A stretch of 64,000 nt of DNA, from the NCBI GenBank assembly GCA_036170915.1, contig JAVHQC010000005.1, positions 36,651 through 100,650 of the forward strand, read 5' to 3'. Positions 25,682 to 44,308 of this stretch are shown in pieces; within the stretch, counting starts at the first letter, position 1; every line of letters starts with the position of its first letter. Below the pieces are notes generated by a model that was not told the origin of the DNA, ran no database searches, and saw only the letters and a program-made list of their open reading frames with translations. A program made the position numbers and the translations under genes. Source of the DNA: Cyanobacteria bacterium auto_48_18. Lineage in GTDB: Bacteria; Cyanobacteriota; Vampirovibrionia; Obscuribacterales; Obscuribacteraceae.

Positions 25682-26557
25682 CTATTTCAAACTTGCAAGG
25701 AAAGTTTTTACCGCTTTGCTGTAGGCGGGTGAGGATTGCATCACATCATCTCCATGATAGGCGCCATCTACTCGCACATATTGTTTCGGTTCGGCTATAG
25801 CTTCGTACAACTCGTCTGACTGTTCGATTCTTGTGATCATATCGGCGGTGCCTGCCACCATTAAAACGGGTGGGTGTTTTTTGCCCAGAACTAGAGCGTT
25901 GTTCAAGGCTTTGCAATTTTCTGACCAGGCCCAATCTGGATACAATTTTAGAAAAGGCAGGGTGTCGCAACCGACTCTTTGAACTGAATAAAGCGGACAC
26001 TCTAGAATAGCACCGGCACAGTAACAAGATGCTGCCAACTTACCGGCCACCACTGTGCCCAATGATTCACCAAAGAGGATAATTTGTTCCGGTCCATAAT
26101 ATTCGTGATTGATTAAGTATTTATAGGCACCGTGTCCATCATCGTAAAGGCCACCCAGTGAAGGTTTTCCTTCGCTGCGGCCGTAACCTGAATAGTCGTA
26201 TGTAAATACTGACGTGCCGGCTTTAAGTAAACGTTCCACAAGATAAGCTTTGTATGAAACATTGCCAAAATTGCCATGACTAAAAAGCATAATTTTCTTG
26301 GCGCCTGGAAGCTTATACATCAGCCCGTGGAGCGTATTTCCGTTGTCTGATCTAAAGTAAATATTTTCTGGTTGAATGTTGTTCGCGTTGACTTCTTCAT
26401 AGTATCCGCCTGGAAATTTAACCGGATAAAACAGTAAGTAATTGTAGAGCGGTTGACCGACAATAGGCGCGAAAGTCAGTACCAATGCTGCTGCTATGGT
26501 ACTACTGGCAATAAATAAAGTGCGCAGGGCGCGCTGCCATTTTTTAGAGACTGGCAA
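25682..26557 (-). CDS. Alpha/beta hydrolase (ABHD17-like), paralog 2
   Basis: SHGN, YDYSGYGRSEG, GESLG nucleophile elbow, GTAD, GAYH. Confidence 0.9.
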   Translation of the reverse strand: MPVSKKWQRALRTLFIASSTIAAALVLTFAPIVGQPLYNYLLFYPVKFPGGYYEEVNANNIQPENIYFRSDNGNTLHGLMYKLPGAKKIMLFSHGNFGNVSYKAYLVERLLKAGTSVFTYDYSGYGRSEGKPSLGGLYDDGHGAYKYLINHEYYGPEQIILFGESLGTVVAGKLAASCYCAGAILECPLYSVQRVGCDTLPFLKLYPDWAWSENCKALNNALVLGKKHPPVLMVAGTADMITRIEQSDELYEAIAEPKQYVRVDGAYHGDDVMQSSPAYSKAVKTFLASLK

Positions 26558-27452
26558 GAAAATTTTTCAATCCCTCTTTGTATTTCGGTGATTTCATCAT
26601 CACTGCATCACCATGCTGGGCGCCTTCAATTCGAATGTATGCTTTCGGTGCCGCCACAGCTGCATACAGTTCGTCAGCTTGTTTAATTTGTGTGAGATTG
26701 TCTAATGTACCGGCAATCAGCAACACTGGCGATCGCTTTTGATGCAAAGCCCGTGAGTTATCTAACTGTTTGCATGAATTACTCCAGGCCCAATCTGGAT
26801 ACCAGCTCAAAAAAGAAAATTTGTCGCAGCTGGTTCGTCGCAAAGAATAGAGTGGGCACTCTAAAATTATTGCTGCGCATTGCACTGACTCTGCCAGTTT
26901 GCCGGTAACAAGCGTGCCCAGCGATTCGCCGAATAAGATAATTTCTTCGGGGCGCAGATGCTTTACTTTAGTCAAATAGTCATAAGCACTTTGGCCATCT
27001 TGGCAGAGTGTTTCAAGAGTCGTTTTTCCCTCACTGCGACCGAAGCCTGCGTAGTCATAAACAAAAACAGAAACTCCATCTTTTAGAAGTACGTCAACAA
27101 TATGGCCGCGCTGCGAGATATTTCCTGAGTTGCCGTGACTCAGCAGTACTACATGTTTAGCCAGAGGCAGAGAATAGAGCAGGCCGTGCAGCTTAATGCC
27201 GTCTTGCGAACGAAAGAATATTTCTTCTGGTTTGATGCCTTTAACGGTGAGCTTTTGATATGTACCTTTGGGATATTTGAGCGGCTGAAAAAGTATGCGA
27301 TCGTAAATGGGTTGGCCCACTGCGGGAGCCAGAGCCACCGCAATCGCCAGTGGCAATAACAAAAGTAGGCCAACCAGCGACAGCGCCGTGCCGCACAATA
27401 CAAAGGCCCAGTTTAAATTGACGAGTTTTTTCGGCAGAAATTTTGCAGCCAT
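26544..27452 (-). CDS. Alpha/beta hydrolase (ABHD17-like), paralog 1
   Basis: SHGN, YDYAGFGRSEG, GESLG, GTLD, GAQH; tandem paralog of the downstream gene. Confidence 0.9.
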   Translation of the reverse strand: MAAKFLPKKLVNLNWAFVLCGTALSLVGLLLLLPLAIAVALAPAVGQPIYDRILFQPLKYPKGTYQKLTVKGIKPEEIFFRSQDGIKLHGLLYSLPLAKHVVLLSHGNSGNISQRGHIVDVLLKDGVSVFVYDYAGFGRSEGKTTLETLCQDGQSAYDYLTKVKHLRPEEIILFGESLGTLVTGKLAESVQCAAIILECPLYSLRRTSCDKFSFLSWYPDWAWSNSCKQLDNSRALHQKRSPVLLIAGTLDNLTQIKQADELYAAVAAPKAYIRIEGAQHGDAVMMKSPKYKEGLKNFLASL

Positions 27453-27578
27453 TTGAGTGCCGCCCGGAGCTTGCCCACACTTTTTAAGCTTACCAAGCAG
27501 GCTTGAGGTGGCCCAGAGCAACCAACACTTTGCCAAGTGTTTGCTGTCTTAATGCGAAACAGTCATTATATATAGACC

Positions 27579-31892: not shown

Positions 31893-34466
31893 TTATGAAA
31901 GTTTTTCGCGAATGAAATCGATTACGATTGGCGCTGCTAGAAAACCAATTGTGGCTGCCATTTTAGCTCTGGTGCCACCACAACGGTAGGCTAGATAGGT
32001 CAAACCACCTGTGATACCAACGTCTGAGGCCACCATAAACGTATTCTGCAAGCTCGGACGGTTATACAAATTTGCAAAATCTTGAGCTTCGTCAGCTAGA
32101 CCGCGAACAAATGGATTTTTGCCCAGCAATTGCCTTTCGGTTTGAGCCCGATTCACAACAGCTGGATTGCCCGTGCGATCAAATTTCAGATCAACGTTAA
32201 ACTGATCTGGTGAGAACAATACTGTGCGCATCCAGTCGGGTAGCGGGTTTTCCATGGTGGCACGATAGATGCGTCCGTCTACACCGTTTGGACCAACCGG
32301 CAATTCTGTAATATTTTGGATTTTACTATCGAGATTGTAGCCTGCTACTTGTGCGTGCAATGTGATGCCGCTAATATTTTTCAACTCTGGATAACCGTTT
32401 GCTTTGGCCAGATCAAACGATGTTTTACCAATTTCTATTGACTTGAGAATGCCAACGCCAAATTTCACATCTAATGGAATGTCAGCATTCATTTTGCGGT
32501 CAATCGTGATCGTGTCACGATTCTTCGAAATCAAAGTAGTATTTTGAATAAACTTATTTACTGGATCGTTAAAAGCTACGTGGGTTGAGCGGCTTATCTT
32601 ATCGTACATTTTCGATGGGCTAATTGAACCGTCTGAAATTGTGCGGGCAGCATCAAAAATGTTATCTACATCTTGCTGAATTCCTGCCACACCGCGTTTC
32701 TTTATGGCAGCTCGCAATTGCTTGACTGTGGTCAATTCTTCGACAGGCAGACTGGTTCTTATCTCATTATTGTCGCTGGGTTTGGGAGGGGCGACACGAG
32801 GATGCGCTTCGAAAAAGTCCCAAACCTGCTGCAATCTGTGTGCTGGATTATCGAGGAAATGACCAACTCCACTTAGAGTGATGTGTTCCACCGCTGTTCC
32901 ATTTTGAAGATTGTTCGATGTTTCAATAGTTTCAATGCCTCTTTTCACAACTGTTGGTTTAGTGGTGATACCGTTTAACTTGCGGTAATAATCAGTGCCA
33001 AAGTGCGCGGGCTGAAACAGCGGCACGCCGACATCAGTCAAAACTGTGGGTGTATTGGTCATACCTTCATAAGGAATAATCTTGTCAGCAGTGCCGTGGA
33101 TATTAATCATTGAAAGCGGTGCTTTTGGCGTCGGCTCTTTGCCGTTCATTGTCGAACTCAAAATGCCGATGCCGGCAAGTGTGCCCGATAAAGCTGCGGC
33201 CGTCGAATAGGTCAGCATGCCGCCATTAGACAAGCCCGCCATGTAAATGCGCTGAGGATCTACATTTACTTGTTTCTTAGTGGCTGCAATGATATCGCCC
33301 ATAAATTTGACATCGCCGGCCTTCTGCCCCGGCAGCACCAGCCCGTTGCCTGATTCCCAGGTGCGTAAGTCTTTTACGTCAAACCAGTTAACTGAATCAG
33401 GATAGACAGCAATAAAGCCTTCTTTGTCTGCCAGCTTGTTGGCTTGAAACATCTCCTCAACATCTTTGCCGGTTTGCGACATGCCCGATGCGAGAATCAT
33501 CATGGGCATTGGTTTTGTGGCATCATAACTTGGTGGCACATGCACGGTAAAGGTACGTTTGCGGCCTTCTATCTGCATGGTCTCGACATAATCGCCGGGC
33601 CCTTTGATTTTGAAAGTTGAAGCATCAGTGGAAGGAAGTTCTTTGGCTTTTGGCTGCGGCTGGTCTAATTTGCCCTGAGCGCTTTTGTCAGGCTGAACAC
33701 TATTCAGCACAACGCCAGGATCGAAATCGCTTTTTAAATAGGTGCCGAATCTAGACATAAACGGCGCCATAATATTTTTAACCCAGGGGCCATTATTCTG
33801 GTTAAATTCAGCCACGTCGCCAGCATCGTTAAGGGCGTCTTTCAGCACTAGACCAGGCAAGGTAGTACCGGCGCTGTTAGAAAGCGTACGCAATACTTCG
33901 CTGTCACTGGGATAGGCAACTTTGCCCTTTGCGTTGACGAAAATATTCAGCGGAATTGTACTTGGAGTATTGAAGACTTTTTCCACTTCAGGAGGCAGCG
34001 GATTGTCTACCTGGAGCTGAAAGCGAGTGCTGCCATTGGCTTCTTTGCTTATTGCAATACTTCTAACCGCCAAGGTCTCTTCGCGGCCAAAAGTGTGGAA
34101 GTTTAGCTTGATACCGCTGACATCGGTCAAATTCTGACTGCCGTCGGCCGCTGTGGTCTTTTTGAAAGTTGGATTCTTCGCTTCCAACGACTTCAAAACC
34201 AACTCTTCATTTAGATACGAGTGATTGAGAGAAATGGTGAATTTTTCGCCGACAATAGAGGGCAGCTTAAGCTTTGCGCCGTCTGCTGTCTCCGCGATGC
34301 CTGTCAAAAATCGAGACATAGTATGCTGTTGCGCATGCGGCCCGCGAGTGCGAGCGTCAATATTGGCGACACGGTCTGCAGTGCGGCTCGAATGAGTGTC
34401 GTCAAACGGTCTGTTTTCCGACTTCTCTAAGCCAGGCTTTTTCGATGATGTCTGTACTTGGTCCAA
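31893..34466 (-). CDS. Large protein with central LpqC/PHB-depolymerase-like esterase domain
   Basis: RTFTVHVPPSYD, GFIAVYP, DV.F, IYMAGLSNGG, IHGTADKIIPY, GVGH; flanked by a repeated unknown domain; C-terminal hydrophobic helices. Confidence 0.85.
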   Translation of the reverse strand: MDQVQTSSKKPGLEKSENRPFDDTHSSRTADRVANIDARTRGPHAQQHTMSRFLTGIAETADGAKLKLPSIVGEKFTISLNHSYLNEELVLKSLEAKNPTFKKTTAADGSQNLTDVSGIKLNFHTFGREETLAVRSIAISKEANGSTRFQLQVDNPLPPEVEKVFNTPSTIPLNIFVNAKGKVAYPSDSEVLRTLSNSAGTTLPGLVLKDALNDAGDVAEFNQNNGPWVKNIMAPFMSRFGTYLKSDFDPGVVLNSVQPDKSAQGKLDQPQPKAKELPSTDASTFKIKGPGDYVETMQIEGRKRTFTVHVPPSYDATKPMPMMILASGMSQTGKDVEEMFQANKLADKEGFIAVYPDSVNWFDVKDLRTWESGNGLVLPGQKAGDVKFMGDIIAATKKQVNVDPQRIYMAGLSNGGMLTYSTAAALSGTLAGIGILSSTMNGKEPTPKAPLSMINIHGTADKIIPYEGMTNTPTVLTDVGVPLFQPAHFGTDYYRKLNGITTKPTVVKRGIETIETSNNLQNGTAVEHITLSGVGHFLDNPAHRLQQVWDFFEAHPRVAPPKPSDNNEIRTSLPVEELTTVKQLRAAIKKRGVAGIQQDVDNIFDAARTISDGSISPSKMYDKISRSTHVAFNDPVNKFIQNTTLISKNRDTITIDRKMNADIPLDVKFGVGILKSIEIGKTSFDLAKANGYPELKNISGITLHAQVAGYNLDSKIQNITELPVGPNGVDGRIYRATMENPLPDWMRTVLFSPDQFNVDLKFDRTGNPAVVNRAQTERQLLGKNPFVRGLADEAQDFANLYNRPSLQNTFMVASDVGITGGLTYLAYRCGGTRAKMAATIGFLAAPIVIDFIREKLS

Positions 34467-34649
34467 ATTAACTCACAAGGTGGGGGCTTGTTGATTCAAG
34501 ATTTTGCGTGATCTTGCAGAATAAAGCTCTGTGGTATCTACGTACCCGCAAGTTAATTTTGAGGGCTGTTGGCGTTCATAATTCCTTTACAACAATTCGA
34601 TAGGCTAAAAACATCAATGGTGGTAAGTCGCTCAGTTAGAGGAGATTTT

Positions 34650-35594
34650 ATGAAATTCCCAATTTTTCTGGCGCTGTTTTTAACTGTGCTTATGCCTTCG
34701 GCCATTGCCGCTGATCAGGGCATCGGTTGGATTCCCACATGGCAGCAGGCGCTTGTTGAGGCCAGACAAACGAACAAACCAATCATGCTCATGGCGGGAG
34801 CGCCTGCCTGTGCGGGAGTGCCAGGCACCTGGTGACCGGGCAAGCAAGCCTCAGACATGAGTTACATGTCTCAACCGGAAGTAATCACAGCCTCGAGAAA
34901 CTTTGTTTGCGTCAGAATGATGACTTACGAAAATGCTGCGGAAGCCGAAGTTCTGAAATCTTTGTGGAGGCCAGGGGCGCCTTTAGAAAATACCCTTTTT
35001 GCCATTCTTGATCCTAGCGGCCGGCCGCTCACCAGAGGCGTTCGTTCACCGGGCTCTTTGTATAACGATGCTCACGCGCTCGCCGCCGCACTCAACGATG
35101 TTTCCAGTCATTATTCAGGCAGGGCAAATCCAAGGGCATTGCCTGTGATTGCCACAGTGCGCCTGGGTTTAAATGTCGCAGCTTGTGACAGAAGGCCACT
35201 GACTGTTGTCGTGGCCGATAGTGAACAGGACAGGCGCACTCTAGAGGCGACTCTTGCTCCTCTGGCGTGGAGCCCAGATTTGATTGGAAAAATGTGTTAT
35301 GCATCGGGGGGCAGAAACGACTTGCGCGGCATCTCCGGGGCGAATTTATCCAGGGGCTTTTTGTTTGTCGCTCCCAACGAATTTGGCACCACCGGCAGCA
35401 TCATTGCCCAGTTGCCACCAACCGCATCAGCAGCCGAAATGAAAAATGCGCTACAACTTGCTGTTGATCGGTATCGGCCATCGTATATGGATCATCATGA
35501 TCACGTGCGCAAGGGCCGCGAGCAAGGAATTCACTGGGACACAGCAATTCCGGTTACAGACCAACAAGCGCTTAGGGCTGAGCAAGGTAGATAA
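34650..35594 (+). CDS. Predicted exported thioredoxin-like selenoprotein (314 aa, Sec62 encoded by UGA 34833-34835)
   Basis: GAGGAG RBS and signal peptide. The pattern IGW..TWQQALVEARQTNKPIML...GTW-UGA-PG...PEVITASRNFVCVR continues in frame through the UGA. A hairpin lies 3' of the UGA. Confidence 0.72.
34836..34878 (+). promoter_or_regulatory. Candidate bacterial SECIS element
   Basis: Upper stem AGACATG/CATGTCT (34853-59/34865-71) with loop AGTTA (G at position 2) starting 24 nt after the UGA; lower stem CCGG/CCGG. Confidence 0.62.
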
Positions 35595-35676
35595 GCAAGA
35601 CCTTAATGGCTGATGCTTGGCAATTTTATTTTAAAAGTGTACGCTAACAATGTACGTTTTCTTGTTGGTTTCAATC

Positions 35677-36033
35677 ATGTCAAATTTGAAAGACAGTCAG
35701 AAAAAAGCGGCTACTCTTATGGGTTTTACTCAAAAATCCATGGGTAAAACGCAGGCTCGTAGAGAGTTTTTCCCTTTGGTTGATTCTTTGAGTACCACTT
35801 CTTCGATTGTCGAAATTTCTGACCACAACAAGCCTGTTGCTGTCCTCCTCAGCTATGAAAATTATGCAGCACTTACGGCCAAACTGTGTATGTTGGCAAA
35901 TGCTGCAAATCAGCACCCTATGCCGAATTTAATGGGTTCGATCAAAATTGTGACAGACGATCTAGATGAAGCAAGCAAACGTATCTCTGAAAAATTTGAG
36001 AAATCAGTCAAGCAGAGTGTCAAAAAATTGTGA
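35677..36033 (+). CDS. Phd/YefM family antitoxin
   Basis: TQARREF..LVD...VEISDHNKPVAVLLSYE.Y; coupled to the PIN toxin gene. Confidence 0.85.
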   Translation: MSNLKDSQKKAATLMGFTQKSMGKTQARREFFPLVDSLSTTSSIVEISDHNKPVAVLLSYENYAALTAKLCMLANAANQHPMPNLMGSIKIVTDDLDEASKRISEKFEKSVKQSVKKL

Positions 36034-36443
36034 CAGACAGATTGTTGGTGACGGATACTCATCCAATTATTTATTACTTCTGTGGGCGAGACAAGCGACT
36101 GGGCAAGAAAGCTTTAGCGGCCTTCAATGAAGCAACTACTTCTGCTAAGACTTCTATCTTTGTACCAACACCTGTGGTCTGGGAACTGGCAATATTAGTC
36201 GAAGAGGGAGCAATTAAGCTAGATAAACCGTTCCCACAATGGATTGACACTCTGTTCCAGTATCCCGCGATTAACCCAGTGGCGTTTGACGTTGATATAG
36301 CTAAAACTTGTTTCGATGTCCGGTTTCATGCGGATCCATTTGACCGTGCAATTGTGGCTACAGCAATTCAAATGGATCTTCCTCTGATCTCCAACGATCG
36401 AAAAATGCACCTTCATCTTCCGTGCAAACTTTTTTGGGACTAA
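36030..36443 (+). CDS. vapC: PIN-domain (VapC-type) toxin
   Basis: LVTDTH, VVWEL, H.DPFDR.IVATA, LIS.D acidic PIN motifs; GTGA overlap with the antitoxin. Confidence 0.88.
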   Translation: MTDRLLVTDTHPIIYYFCGRDKRLGKKALAAFNEATTSAKTSIFVPTPVVWELAILVEEGAIKLDKPFPQWIDTLFQYPAINPVAFDVDIAKTCFDVRFHADPFDRAIVATAIQMDLPLISNDRKMHLHLPCKLFWD

Positions 36444-42918: not shown

Positions 42919-43022
42919 ATCTTAGTGGCTGATAACTTGCTTGCCTTGCTTTAGCTAACTCTTCTGGGTGATTGTGCTGTCGAGTATCGAGAGGTAGGCT
43001 GGAAGAGAGAGGGCACAAGGCT

Positions 43023-43598
43023 ATGAGTAAGTCACATATCAACTACTGGGAAGACCTTAGTCGATGGTTTTCGTTTGCTGTGCATCGCCTTATTTTTGTC
43101 CCAGTGTGCTGCATTCAAGCTATTGAGAGTGAACTAACAACAAAGCACGCCGAGTTCAAAATATCACATAGTCTGCCAGAACATAATAAGGGCGGCGAAA
43201 CAGACAATTTGGAAACCCTAATGAATACGCTAAATATTCCAGAAAAGAAAGCGCTTATAGACCATCCTCACATCTGTAGAGGCTGCGGCCATGACATCAT
43301 CTCTCGGGCACACTCTAGCGTTGTTCATGAGCATACAAAACTCGACCATGAAATTTTTCACAATTGGTTGTCTAATGATCAACCACGTCTCGACGTTTAC
43401 CAAGCACTGCCCCACGCTAGTGGCTATGAGCAAAATCTGGACGGCTTCACCGATGAACACCTTCAGCGCGTTGAGAAATACTGGGCAGAACATCAGCTAG
43501 TAAGTCCGACCTGCACAAATTCAGCCAGACTCGCAACAACAGCCGAGTGGGAAAGAACTAAGAAAATGGCTCTTGAAGCTGCGCACCGCGATATCTAG
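43023..43598 (+). CDS. His/Cys-rich hypothetical protein, tandem paralog A
   Basis: Start aligned with its paralog (MSKS..NYW); HPHICRGC.HD motif. Confidence 0.75.
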   Translation: MSKSHINYWEDLSRWFSFAVHRLIFVPVCCIQAIESELTTKHAEFKISHSLPEHNKGGETDNLETLMNTLNIPEKKALIDHPHICRGCGHDIISRAHSSVVHEHTKLDHEIFHNWLSNDQPRLDVYQALPHASGYEQNLDGFTDEHLQRVEKYWAEHQLVSPTCTNSARLATTAEWERTKKMALEAAHRDI

Positions 43599-43735
43599 AG
43601 AAAACGAATAGGTCGCGTACCGCGCTCAGTTGGCTTATATTAAGGAACTTTGGCATGCGGCATAACGTCACTGCGGGCCTGATGTCTTCTCCACGAACTG
43701 CAAAAGAGCGAAGGTATAATGATAATCACAAAATT

Positions 43736-44308
43736 ATGAGTAAGTCTCAGACCAACTACTGGGACGACCTCACGCAATGGTTTTCCTTTGGAATGCATCG
43801 TCTTCTCTACATTCCAGCATGCTGCATTCGAGCCATTGAAAATGAATTAACAATGAAGCACGGCGAGTCTAAAGTATTACATCGACCGCCAGATCATTTG
43901 GGCCACAATACTGCTAATTTCCAAACAGCAAACTATCCCCTAGCTGTTCCTGAAACACATGGATTTATAGACCATCCTCACATCTGTAGAGGTTGCGACC
44001 ACGACATAGTCTCTCGGGCAAAGTCTAGTCTTGTTCATGAGCATACAAGACACGACAATGAAAGTTTTCACAATTGGTTGTCTAATGACGAACCTCGTCT
44101 CGACGTCTACAAGGCGTTGCCTCGCGCTAGTGGTTATGAACAAAATCTAGCTGGCTTTTCAGATGAACACCTTCAGCGTGTGGAGAAATATTGGGCGGAA
44201 CATCAACTTGTAAGCCCAAATTGCACAGGTTCAGCCAAGCTCGCAACCTCAGCCGATTGGGAAAGAACTAAGCAACTGATTTCTGAATCTGGGCCCAGCG
44301 CTATCTAG
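43736..44308 (+). CDS. His/Cys-rich hypothetical protein, tandem paralog B
   Basis: Highly similar to 43023-43598 with both reading frames intact. Confidence 0.75.
   Translation: MSKSQTNYWDDLTQWFSFGMHRLLYIPACCIRAIENELTMKHGESKVLHRPPDHLGHNTANFQTANYPLAVPETHGFIDHPHICRGCDHDIVSRAKSSLVHEHTRHDNESFHNWLSNDEPRLDVYKALPRASGYEQNLAGFSDEHLQRVEKYWAEHQLVSPNCTGSAKLATSADWERTKQLISESGPSAI

Follow-up and report, generated by a model that had tools for sequence, protein, structure and literature searches.

Two annotated genes and the UGA between them

The window, by which we mean the whole stretch of 64,000 nucleotides analyzed here, carries two adjacent genes that are annotated as "hypothetical" and that are parted by a single UGA. 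Are these two genes, or is this one gene in which the UGA is read as selenocysteine (Sec)? The first-pass annotation had proposed a hidden selenoprotein. Its description of the locus is borne out by the letters: the open reading frames at 34569-34835 and 34857-35594 share one frame, and only the TGA at 34833-34835 and seven sense codons lie between them. Reading through the TGA gives a product of 314 amino acids with U62 and C54, in which the lone TGA is codon 62 of 314 and the TAA stop occupies 35592-35594. The features of the gene are as follows.

34640..34644, + strand: Shine-Dalgarno-like AGGAG, 5 nt 5' of the ATG at 34650 (sequence)
34650..35594, + strand: single coding sequence of 314 amino acids with one in-frame UGA (U62) and a TAA stop (frame and conservation in homologs)
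34650..34712, + strand: predicted cleavable signal peptide, residues 1-20/21, with a basic start, a hydrophobic core and A-I-A (by eye)
34833..34835, + strand: UGA, putative selenocysteine codon (U62), then P-G-K (TGA in homologous loci, Cys in the Cys clade)
34853..34871, + strand: bacterial SECIS-like hairpin with a 7-bp stem and the loop AGUUA, overlapping codons 68-74 (folding, covariation, codon use)

In the alignment, most complete homologs have an N terminus that resembles the predicted signal peptide of the window protein. As the first-pass annotation had anticipated, annotation splits the gene in two, with a front of 61 residues and a back of 245 residues standing as distinct database entries. 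The halves gave no sign of being independent genes, since all seven short database proteins stop exactly at the W that precedes the TGA. In the predicted model, a break at the UGA cuts the thioredoxin domain just past its first core strand. Both "hypothetical" genes that flank the UGA are very likely one gene in which the UGA is read as selenocysteine.

The codon in homologous loci

We then asked what homologs carry at this position. TGA stands at codon 62 in all 80 of the best-scoring loci (35-83% identity) that were retained for codon counts from 316 confirmed metagenome loci; this ranking by score favors copies with both halves, and the search patterns sat downstream of the TGA codon. Among 60 related genomes, nine have a full-length copy, and all nine have one TGA, at codon 62. 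The first-pass annotation had made its proposal depend on homologs having TGA or Cys here, and that is what they have: TGA in the loci just described, and Cys in 120 of the 120 proteins listed from a search with one Cys homolog, which returned 141 proteins. These 120 read C-x-G-V-S-G-M-W-C-P-G-K. The upstream motif occurs in just 3 of 234 database proteins, all three with Cys at the UGA site, and Cys is also aligned to the UGA in P0100 and in the distant protein P0206. Sequence is conserved on both flanks of the UGA, in the best 80 of 316 loci as in the nine full-length relatives. The closest named homologs, at 83% identity, are Candidatus Obscuribacter records, which suggests an Obscuribacter-like genome within Vampirovibrionia. 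A tenth relative has a degraded, frameshifted remnant that lacks the front part (L032, G016:C18, 1500-1800); its genome retains selA and tRNA-Sec.

A SECIS-like hairpin downstream of the UGA

Is there a signal that could direct selenocysteine insertion? The hairpin is as the first-pass annotation described it, with 34853-34859 paired to 34865-34871 and an AGUUA loop at 34860-34864 that begins 24 nt past the UGA. In the bSECIS model as set out in PMC13188914, a loop of 3-9 nt with a G in positions 1-2 tops a stem of 4-16 bp, lies 16-37 nt past the UGA, and has a free energy of at most -7.5 kcal/mol. The geometry of the proposed bacterial SECIS element agrees with these published values: G is the second base of a 5-nt loop, the stem has 7 bp, and the distance from the UGA is 24 nt. 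The free energy is -6.9 kcal/mol for the hairpin alone and -13.7 kcal/mol for the 70 nt from the UGA, against the limit of -7.5 kcal/mol. Folding of the 100 nt from the UGA gives a z score of -0.70, and a similar hairpin is found at 130 of 2,963 comparable TGA sites of the same genome. Taken alone, without conservation, the hairpin is weak evidence for a SECIS element.

Its position and pairing are conserved across homologous loci, and the hairpin is therefore more than chance. A SECIS-like hairpin follows the TGA in 67 of the best 80 of 316 loci, compared to 258 of 1,358 control positions downstream in the same genes, and its loop starts at +24 or +25 in 65 of these 67. In a set of 35 sequences, 94.3% of cells were paired and both sides had changed in five of the seven pairs; none of 500 shuffles reached as high, and slid registers were 32-54% paired. 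These 35 were picked by us from 81, and kinship inflates such counts. Codon use was analyzed on a set of 66 distinct sequences. Of 45 Arg residues at codon +8, 43 are encoded by AGG, a codon that accounts for 8% in the rest of these genes, and all 55 Ser residues at codon +9 are encoded by AGT, which accounts for 14% in the rest. The pairing averages 5.8 of 6 and drops to 3.6 with synonymous shuffling, although the per-sequence median P is 0.06. The hairpin is under selection, and codon use is the clearest sign of it. The stem in the window carries U-A at a position where G-C prevails among the homologs, and two residues are altered together (D-R-S-Y-L-S to D-M-S-Y-M-S). At the protein level, the Cys clade no longer retains the hairpin-encoded string D-R-S-F/Y-L-S.

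Selenocysteine machinery and the reading of UGA

Sec decoding of this gene presupposes Sec machinery in the genome, and this part of the proposal stood for three of the four components: selB, selD, and tRNA-Sec(UCA) pass curated cutoffs, and selA was not found with two models in the assembly, which is 86% complete. Of 14 congeners, 13 carry selA. In a one-contig relative, selA adjoins a gene whose counterpart here is truncated where contig C27 begins, and for the three genes that lie beyond selA on its opposite side this assembly has no full-length match. From this synteny, selA is likely missing through an assembly gap. Among 61 genomes sampled, selA was found in 31 of 36 of the window's family and in 3 of 3 of the sister family, and it was over the cutoff in only 2 of 21 others of the class; tRNA-Sec follows the same pattern. 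SelD of this genome is the Cys form. A formate dehydrogenase alpha subunit was not found in the genome (86% complete) either, and these two observations make all Sec candidates seen here exported thioredoxin-fold proteins, as far as export can be predicted.

Could the TGA be a true stop, so that the locus makes a 61-residue exported peptide and a separately started 245-residue protein, or is a pseudogene or an assembly error? Database entries do call the gene as two, selA is missing from the assembly, and in 60 of the 80 loci translation could begin anew at an in-frame ATG that lies six codons past the TGA. However, this ATG is absent from the other 20. One public assembly agrees with the stretch at every position, though the DNA may itself derive from that assembly. 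The codon is TGA in each of these best 80 of 316 loci and never TAA or TAG, though TGA, an ordinary stop in this genome, ends only 384 of ~1,450 long ORFs. The seven codons past the TGA are conserved, with P63 in 80 of 80, the Cys homologs are one chain, and the downstream part would be left without a signal peptide and without the first core strand. We regard a true stop as very improbable. UGA might also be read as Trp or Cys, by an alternative code or a suppressor tRNA, and Cys does work at the site in one clade. Yet TGA is common as a stop in the genome, the only UCA-anticodon tRNA found there is tRNA-Sec, and a conserved hairpin at SECIS distance would lack a role; the chance of such a reading is smaller still. 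That UGA codon 62 is decoded as Sec, through the hairpin, is in our judgment very likely.

Architecture and active site of the predicted protein

An AlphaFold model (pLDDT 92) divides the protein into two thioredoxin-like domains, with the following features.

34710..35117, + strand: domain 1, thioredoxin fold of the DsbD-gamma / DsbH / Thioredoxin_7 type, residues ~21-156 (predicted model, fold searches)
34809..34811, + strand: Cys54, invariant, putative resolving partner of Sec62 (80 of 80 alignment rows)
34809..34832, + strand: 8-residue segment C-x2-[VI]-[PS]-G-x-W, missing from Trx7-type proteins (gap in HMM alignment)
34989..34994, + strand: N114-T115, probably where thioredoxins have the cis-proline loop; Pro is absent (profile alignment)
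35142..35471, + strand: domain 2, thioredoxin-like, without a CxxC motif, residues ~165-274 (predicted model)
35493..35585, + strand: conserved C-terminal extension with H285, G289, G293, W296, and P-V-T-D (alignment, model)

The UGA had been placed at the first Cys of a thioredoxin WCxxC motif, and HMM alignments agree, laying W61-U62 on W-C and K65 on the second Cys. The site is thus C-x7-U without the resolving Cys of CxxC, as the first-pass annotation had noted. A profile-profile alignment gives an alternative register that aligns C54 with the first Cys and U62 with the second, in which case the roles of C54 and U62 could be swapped. In the predicted model, helix 63-71 starts directly after U62, and the model and fold searches fit a thioredoxin fold whose catalytic helix starts with the reactive residue.

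The motif varies little in the best 80 of 316 loci. The spacing from C54 to U is seven residues in all 80, U-P-G-K is found in 68, and the fourth place is K, Y, or F in all 80 and never Cys. HMM alignments to Trx7 proteins of the same genome leave a gap of eight at the inserted segment, in which G59 is present in 80 of 80 rows and W61 in 79 of 80. N114 is in 80 of 80 rows and position 115 is T in 77 and S in 3, in a register that comes from a weakly supported part of the profile alignment; Thr (or Ser) probably stands in for the cis-proline. C87 and R89 both occur in ordinary Trx7-type proteins and thus need not be catalytic. Against Pfam Thioredoxin_7 (PF13899, gathering score 27), the window protein scores 16.5 bits, one Cys homolog 27.1 bits, and three others 15-22 bits. 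Long N-terminal extensions, with EF-hand-like repeats and Pro/Gly/Lys-rich linkers, precede the thioredoxin domain in P0100, L086, L095, L128, and L137.

Comparison with known selenoproteins

Does the protein belong to a family that is already cataloged? Against the selenoprotein models of NCBIfam release 20, the window protein scores 11-15 bits versus cutoffs of 275-805, and across 31 aligned members the best E value is ~0.002 (0.0022, to NF041382/NF041383 VPGUxxT). The Trx7/PDZ family NF041199, as represented in the supplement of PMC12013277, shares with it a signal peptide, the W...A...A...KP-I start of a Thioredoxin_7-type domain, and Sec in the active-site region, and gives a weak match in 11 of the 31 aligned members. 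It differs in having CxxU where C-x7-U stands here and a PDZ domain in place of a second thioredoxin domain; the window protein has no PDZ match and scores 13.9 bits versus a cutoff of 300. The VPGUxxT proteins (NF041382/NF041383, OS_HP5) are likewise thioredoxin-like selenoproteins without a resolving Cys past U. The V-P-G-U-P-G of their representative in the PMC12013277 supplement resembles the V-P-G-T-W-U-P-G of the window protein. However, the window protein has two more residues from G to U, an invariant upstream Cys, and UxxK instead of UxxT, and it scores 11.6 bits versus a cutoff of 275 for NF041383 (the curated score of NF041382 is 350). The family resembles thioredoxin-fold selenoproteins such as Trx7/PDZ and VPGUxxT and is a member of neither.

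Other relatives are more remote. The Sec-containing thioredoxin WP_010956703.1 (PF00085, UxxC) also begins its catalytic helix with W-U-P-G, but continues as W-U-P-G-C with a resolving Cys, in a single domain without a signal peptide. Against NF045694 TsoB, a rhodanese/DsbD fusion, the window protein scores 14.5 bits versus a curated score of 805. DsbD-gamma, DsbH, Thioredox_DsbH (DUF255), and ERp18/AGR2 are 14-27% identical to it; unlike it, they carry CxxC or CxxS, without the inserted Cys loop and without Sec. Classical dithiol-disulfide oxidoreductases differ by their CxxC or UxxC motif, which is absent from the window family. Protein disulfide isomerase, ERp44, and QSOX likewise place an active-type domain ahead of a CxxC-less one, but their arrangement is not superposable (rmsd 15-18 Å) and their active-site motif is another. 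No solved structure matched the family profile in sequence at E values up to 10.

Table 1 of PMC13188914 (119 families, some rows motif-less) has no C-x7-U or G-x-W-U-P-G-K motif, and motif searches of the four deep-Sep supplements of PMC12013277 matched only Trx and Prx-like proteins. The available text of the Sao preprint (10.1101/2022.07.06.499078) describes other families. Among the rows of Table S9 of PMC4807772 is a planctomycete candidate that is called "hypothetical", carries no name and has a Cys homolog; because this row cannot be matched to a family, an earlier mention there is possible. Literature searches returned no description of the family studied here. Measured against NCBIfam, Table 1 of PMC13188914, and the deep-Sep supplements, the family is apparently uncataloged.

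A proposed redox cycle and other functions

What might the protein do? We think it probable that this one gene, its UGA very likely decoded as Sec, gives a predicted exported, two-domain selenol reductase that would cycle via a Cys54-Sec62 bond. SelB on the hairpin is predicted to deliver Sec-tRNA(UCA) to the UGA, and the signal peptide would direct the protein to the periplasm, where U62, located in the model at the start of the catalytic helix, may attack an oxidized substrate as the selenolate. Because the second Cys of a CxxC motif is replaced here by Lys, the residue that resolves the selenolate as a selenenyl-sulfide would be the invariant Cys54, at the far end of the inserted loop. DsbD/TlpA-type donors might then re-reduce this bond, and domain 2 and the C-terminal extension may shape the binding site. 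The redox cycle between U62 and C54 is itself the probable chemistry. Fast disulfide exchange requires the cis-proline, whose place here seems to be taken by Thr/Ser, and for this reason we tentatively prefer a small oxidized substrate (peroxide or an oxidized sulfur group) over protein disulfides, and would put this at somewhat under an even chance. In DsbA, according to the portion of PMC13269488 that concerns it, cis-proline substitution abolishes turnover and P151T is linked to substrate trapping.

Two other functions can be set against this cycle. The selenoprotein could act as a protein disulfide reductase or isomerase on envelope proteins, its domain 2 binding clients like the PDI b domain; tandem active and inactive thioredoxin domains, the presence of PDI, QSOX, and ERp44 among the top Foldseek rows, and the similarity of domain 1 to DsbD-gamma, DsbH, and ERp18/AGR types, its nearest, all point that way. 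However, the two-domain matches have an rmsd of 15-18 Å, so that the domain arrangement differs, CxxC is absent and the cis-proline is probably absent, and we consider this role unlikely. Cis-proline guards thioredoxins against metal binding. Since the resolving Cys is missing, as the cis-proline probably is, and a His is conserved close to the C terminus, the protein might bind or scavenge a soft metal or metalloid (Cu, Hg, As) via U62, C54, and possibly H285, without a catalytic redox cycle. Yet U62 retains the catalytic helix position and no metal-resistance or transport neighbors recur, which leaves metal binding improbable.

Distribution, evolution and significance

A representative search returned 581 clusters at E values up to 0.001 and 180 at 1e-30. 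The source names of Cys-clade proteins point to Planctomycetota and Fimbriimonas, and the ESM Atlas clusters nearest a Cys homolog are mostly from Planctomycetota and have no family name. In two quick trees, the main Cys clade was nested among Sec rows and local support was strong, a placement suggestive of a Sec-to-Cys change in this clade. The change remains a lead because the approximately unbiased (AU) test does not reject a single clade of all Cys rows (P = 0.207). According to PMC13188914, an inventory of 2026, Cys homologs are far commoner for nearly all of the 119 prokaryotic selenoprotein families, and Sec-to-Cys changes are rare. It is possible, if rather doubtful, that this widespread family used Sec ancestrally and has a new thioredoxin-fold active site, with the resolving Cys relocated from CxxC onto an inserted loop (C-x7-U) and without the cis-proline, and that its Cys forms are derived by reversion from Sec.

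The family fits none of the motifs that Table 1 of PMC13188914 lists for its 119 families, and in the samples examined most of its members have Sec. One of its clades may have changed from Sec to Cys. In the databases, hundreds of entries are split or shortened at the UGA. The C-x7-U site, if true, would be a new way of resolving a selenol in the thioredoxin fold, and it can be tested without Sec expression because a natural Cys clade exists. These data also indicate an unannotated selenoproteome, exported by prediction, in nonphotosynthetic Cyanobacteriota. If the reading as an ancestrally Sec family is true, then, taken together with a second candidate family (two to four UGA paralogs per genome), it would mean that Obscuribacterales retain the Sec machinery mainly for exported thioredoxin-fold selenoenzymes and not for formate dehydrogenase.

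Neighboring genes and other candidate selenoproteins

No conserved gene neighbor hinted at a substrate; the largest neighbor cluster was found at 13 of 91 loci. In the window, a divergent esterase-domain gene flanks it on one side and a Phd/PIN toxin-antitoxin pair on the other. These and two further gene pairs are as follows.

25682-27536, - strand: tandem paralog pair of alpha/beta-hydrolase-like genes (by eye)
31893-34466, - strand: divergent 857-residue protein with a PHB-depolymerase-like esterase domain in its middle
35650-36443, + strand: Phd/YefM antitoxin and PIN-domain toxin directly downstream, an ordinary type II system
42972-44308, + strand: tandem paralog pair of two similar His-rich hypothetical genes (by eye)

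Elsewhere in the genome, three paralogs make up the second candidate selenoprotein family: L151 (G000:C16:90909-92048, + strand), L152 (G000:C22:55261-56436, - strand), and L153 (G000:C22:441060-442460, - strand). They have a signal-peptide-like start, a Trx7-like N terminus, the motif L-G-x-I-[DE]-G-x-T-(UGA)-S-A-G-N-S-L-R, and a common hairpin whose loop lies 23 nt past the UGA. Nothing came near a cutoff in Pfam (two scanned) or NCBIfam (three scanned). This family occurs in 26 of 41 genomes, with one to four copies each; counted by match, TGA lies within 67 of 69, and the other two begin past the site. A further gene, L154 (G000:C22:456612-457241, - strand), encodes a TlpA/ResA-like lipoprotein whose UGA lies within W-(UGA)-G-P-C (UxxC) and is followed by a hairpin at +31; AhpC-TSA/Redoxin is above the Pfam cutoff, and the candidate is of a known selenoprotein type.
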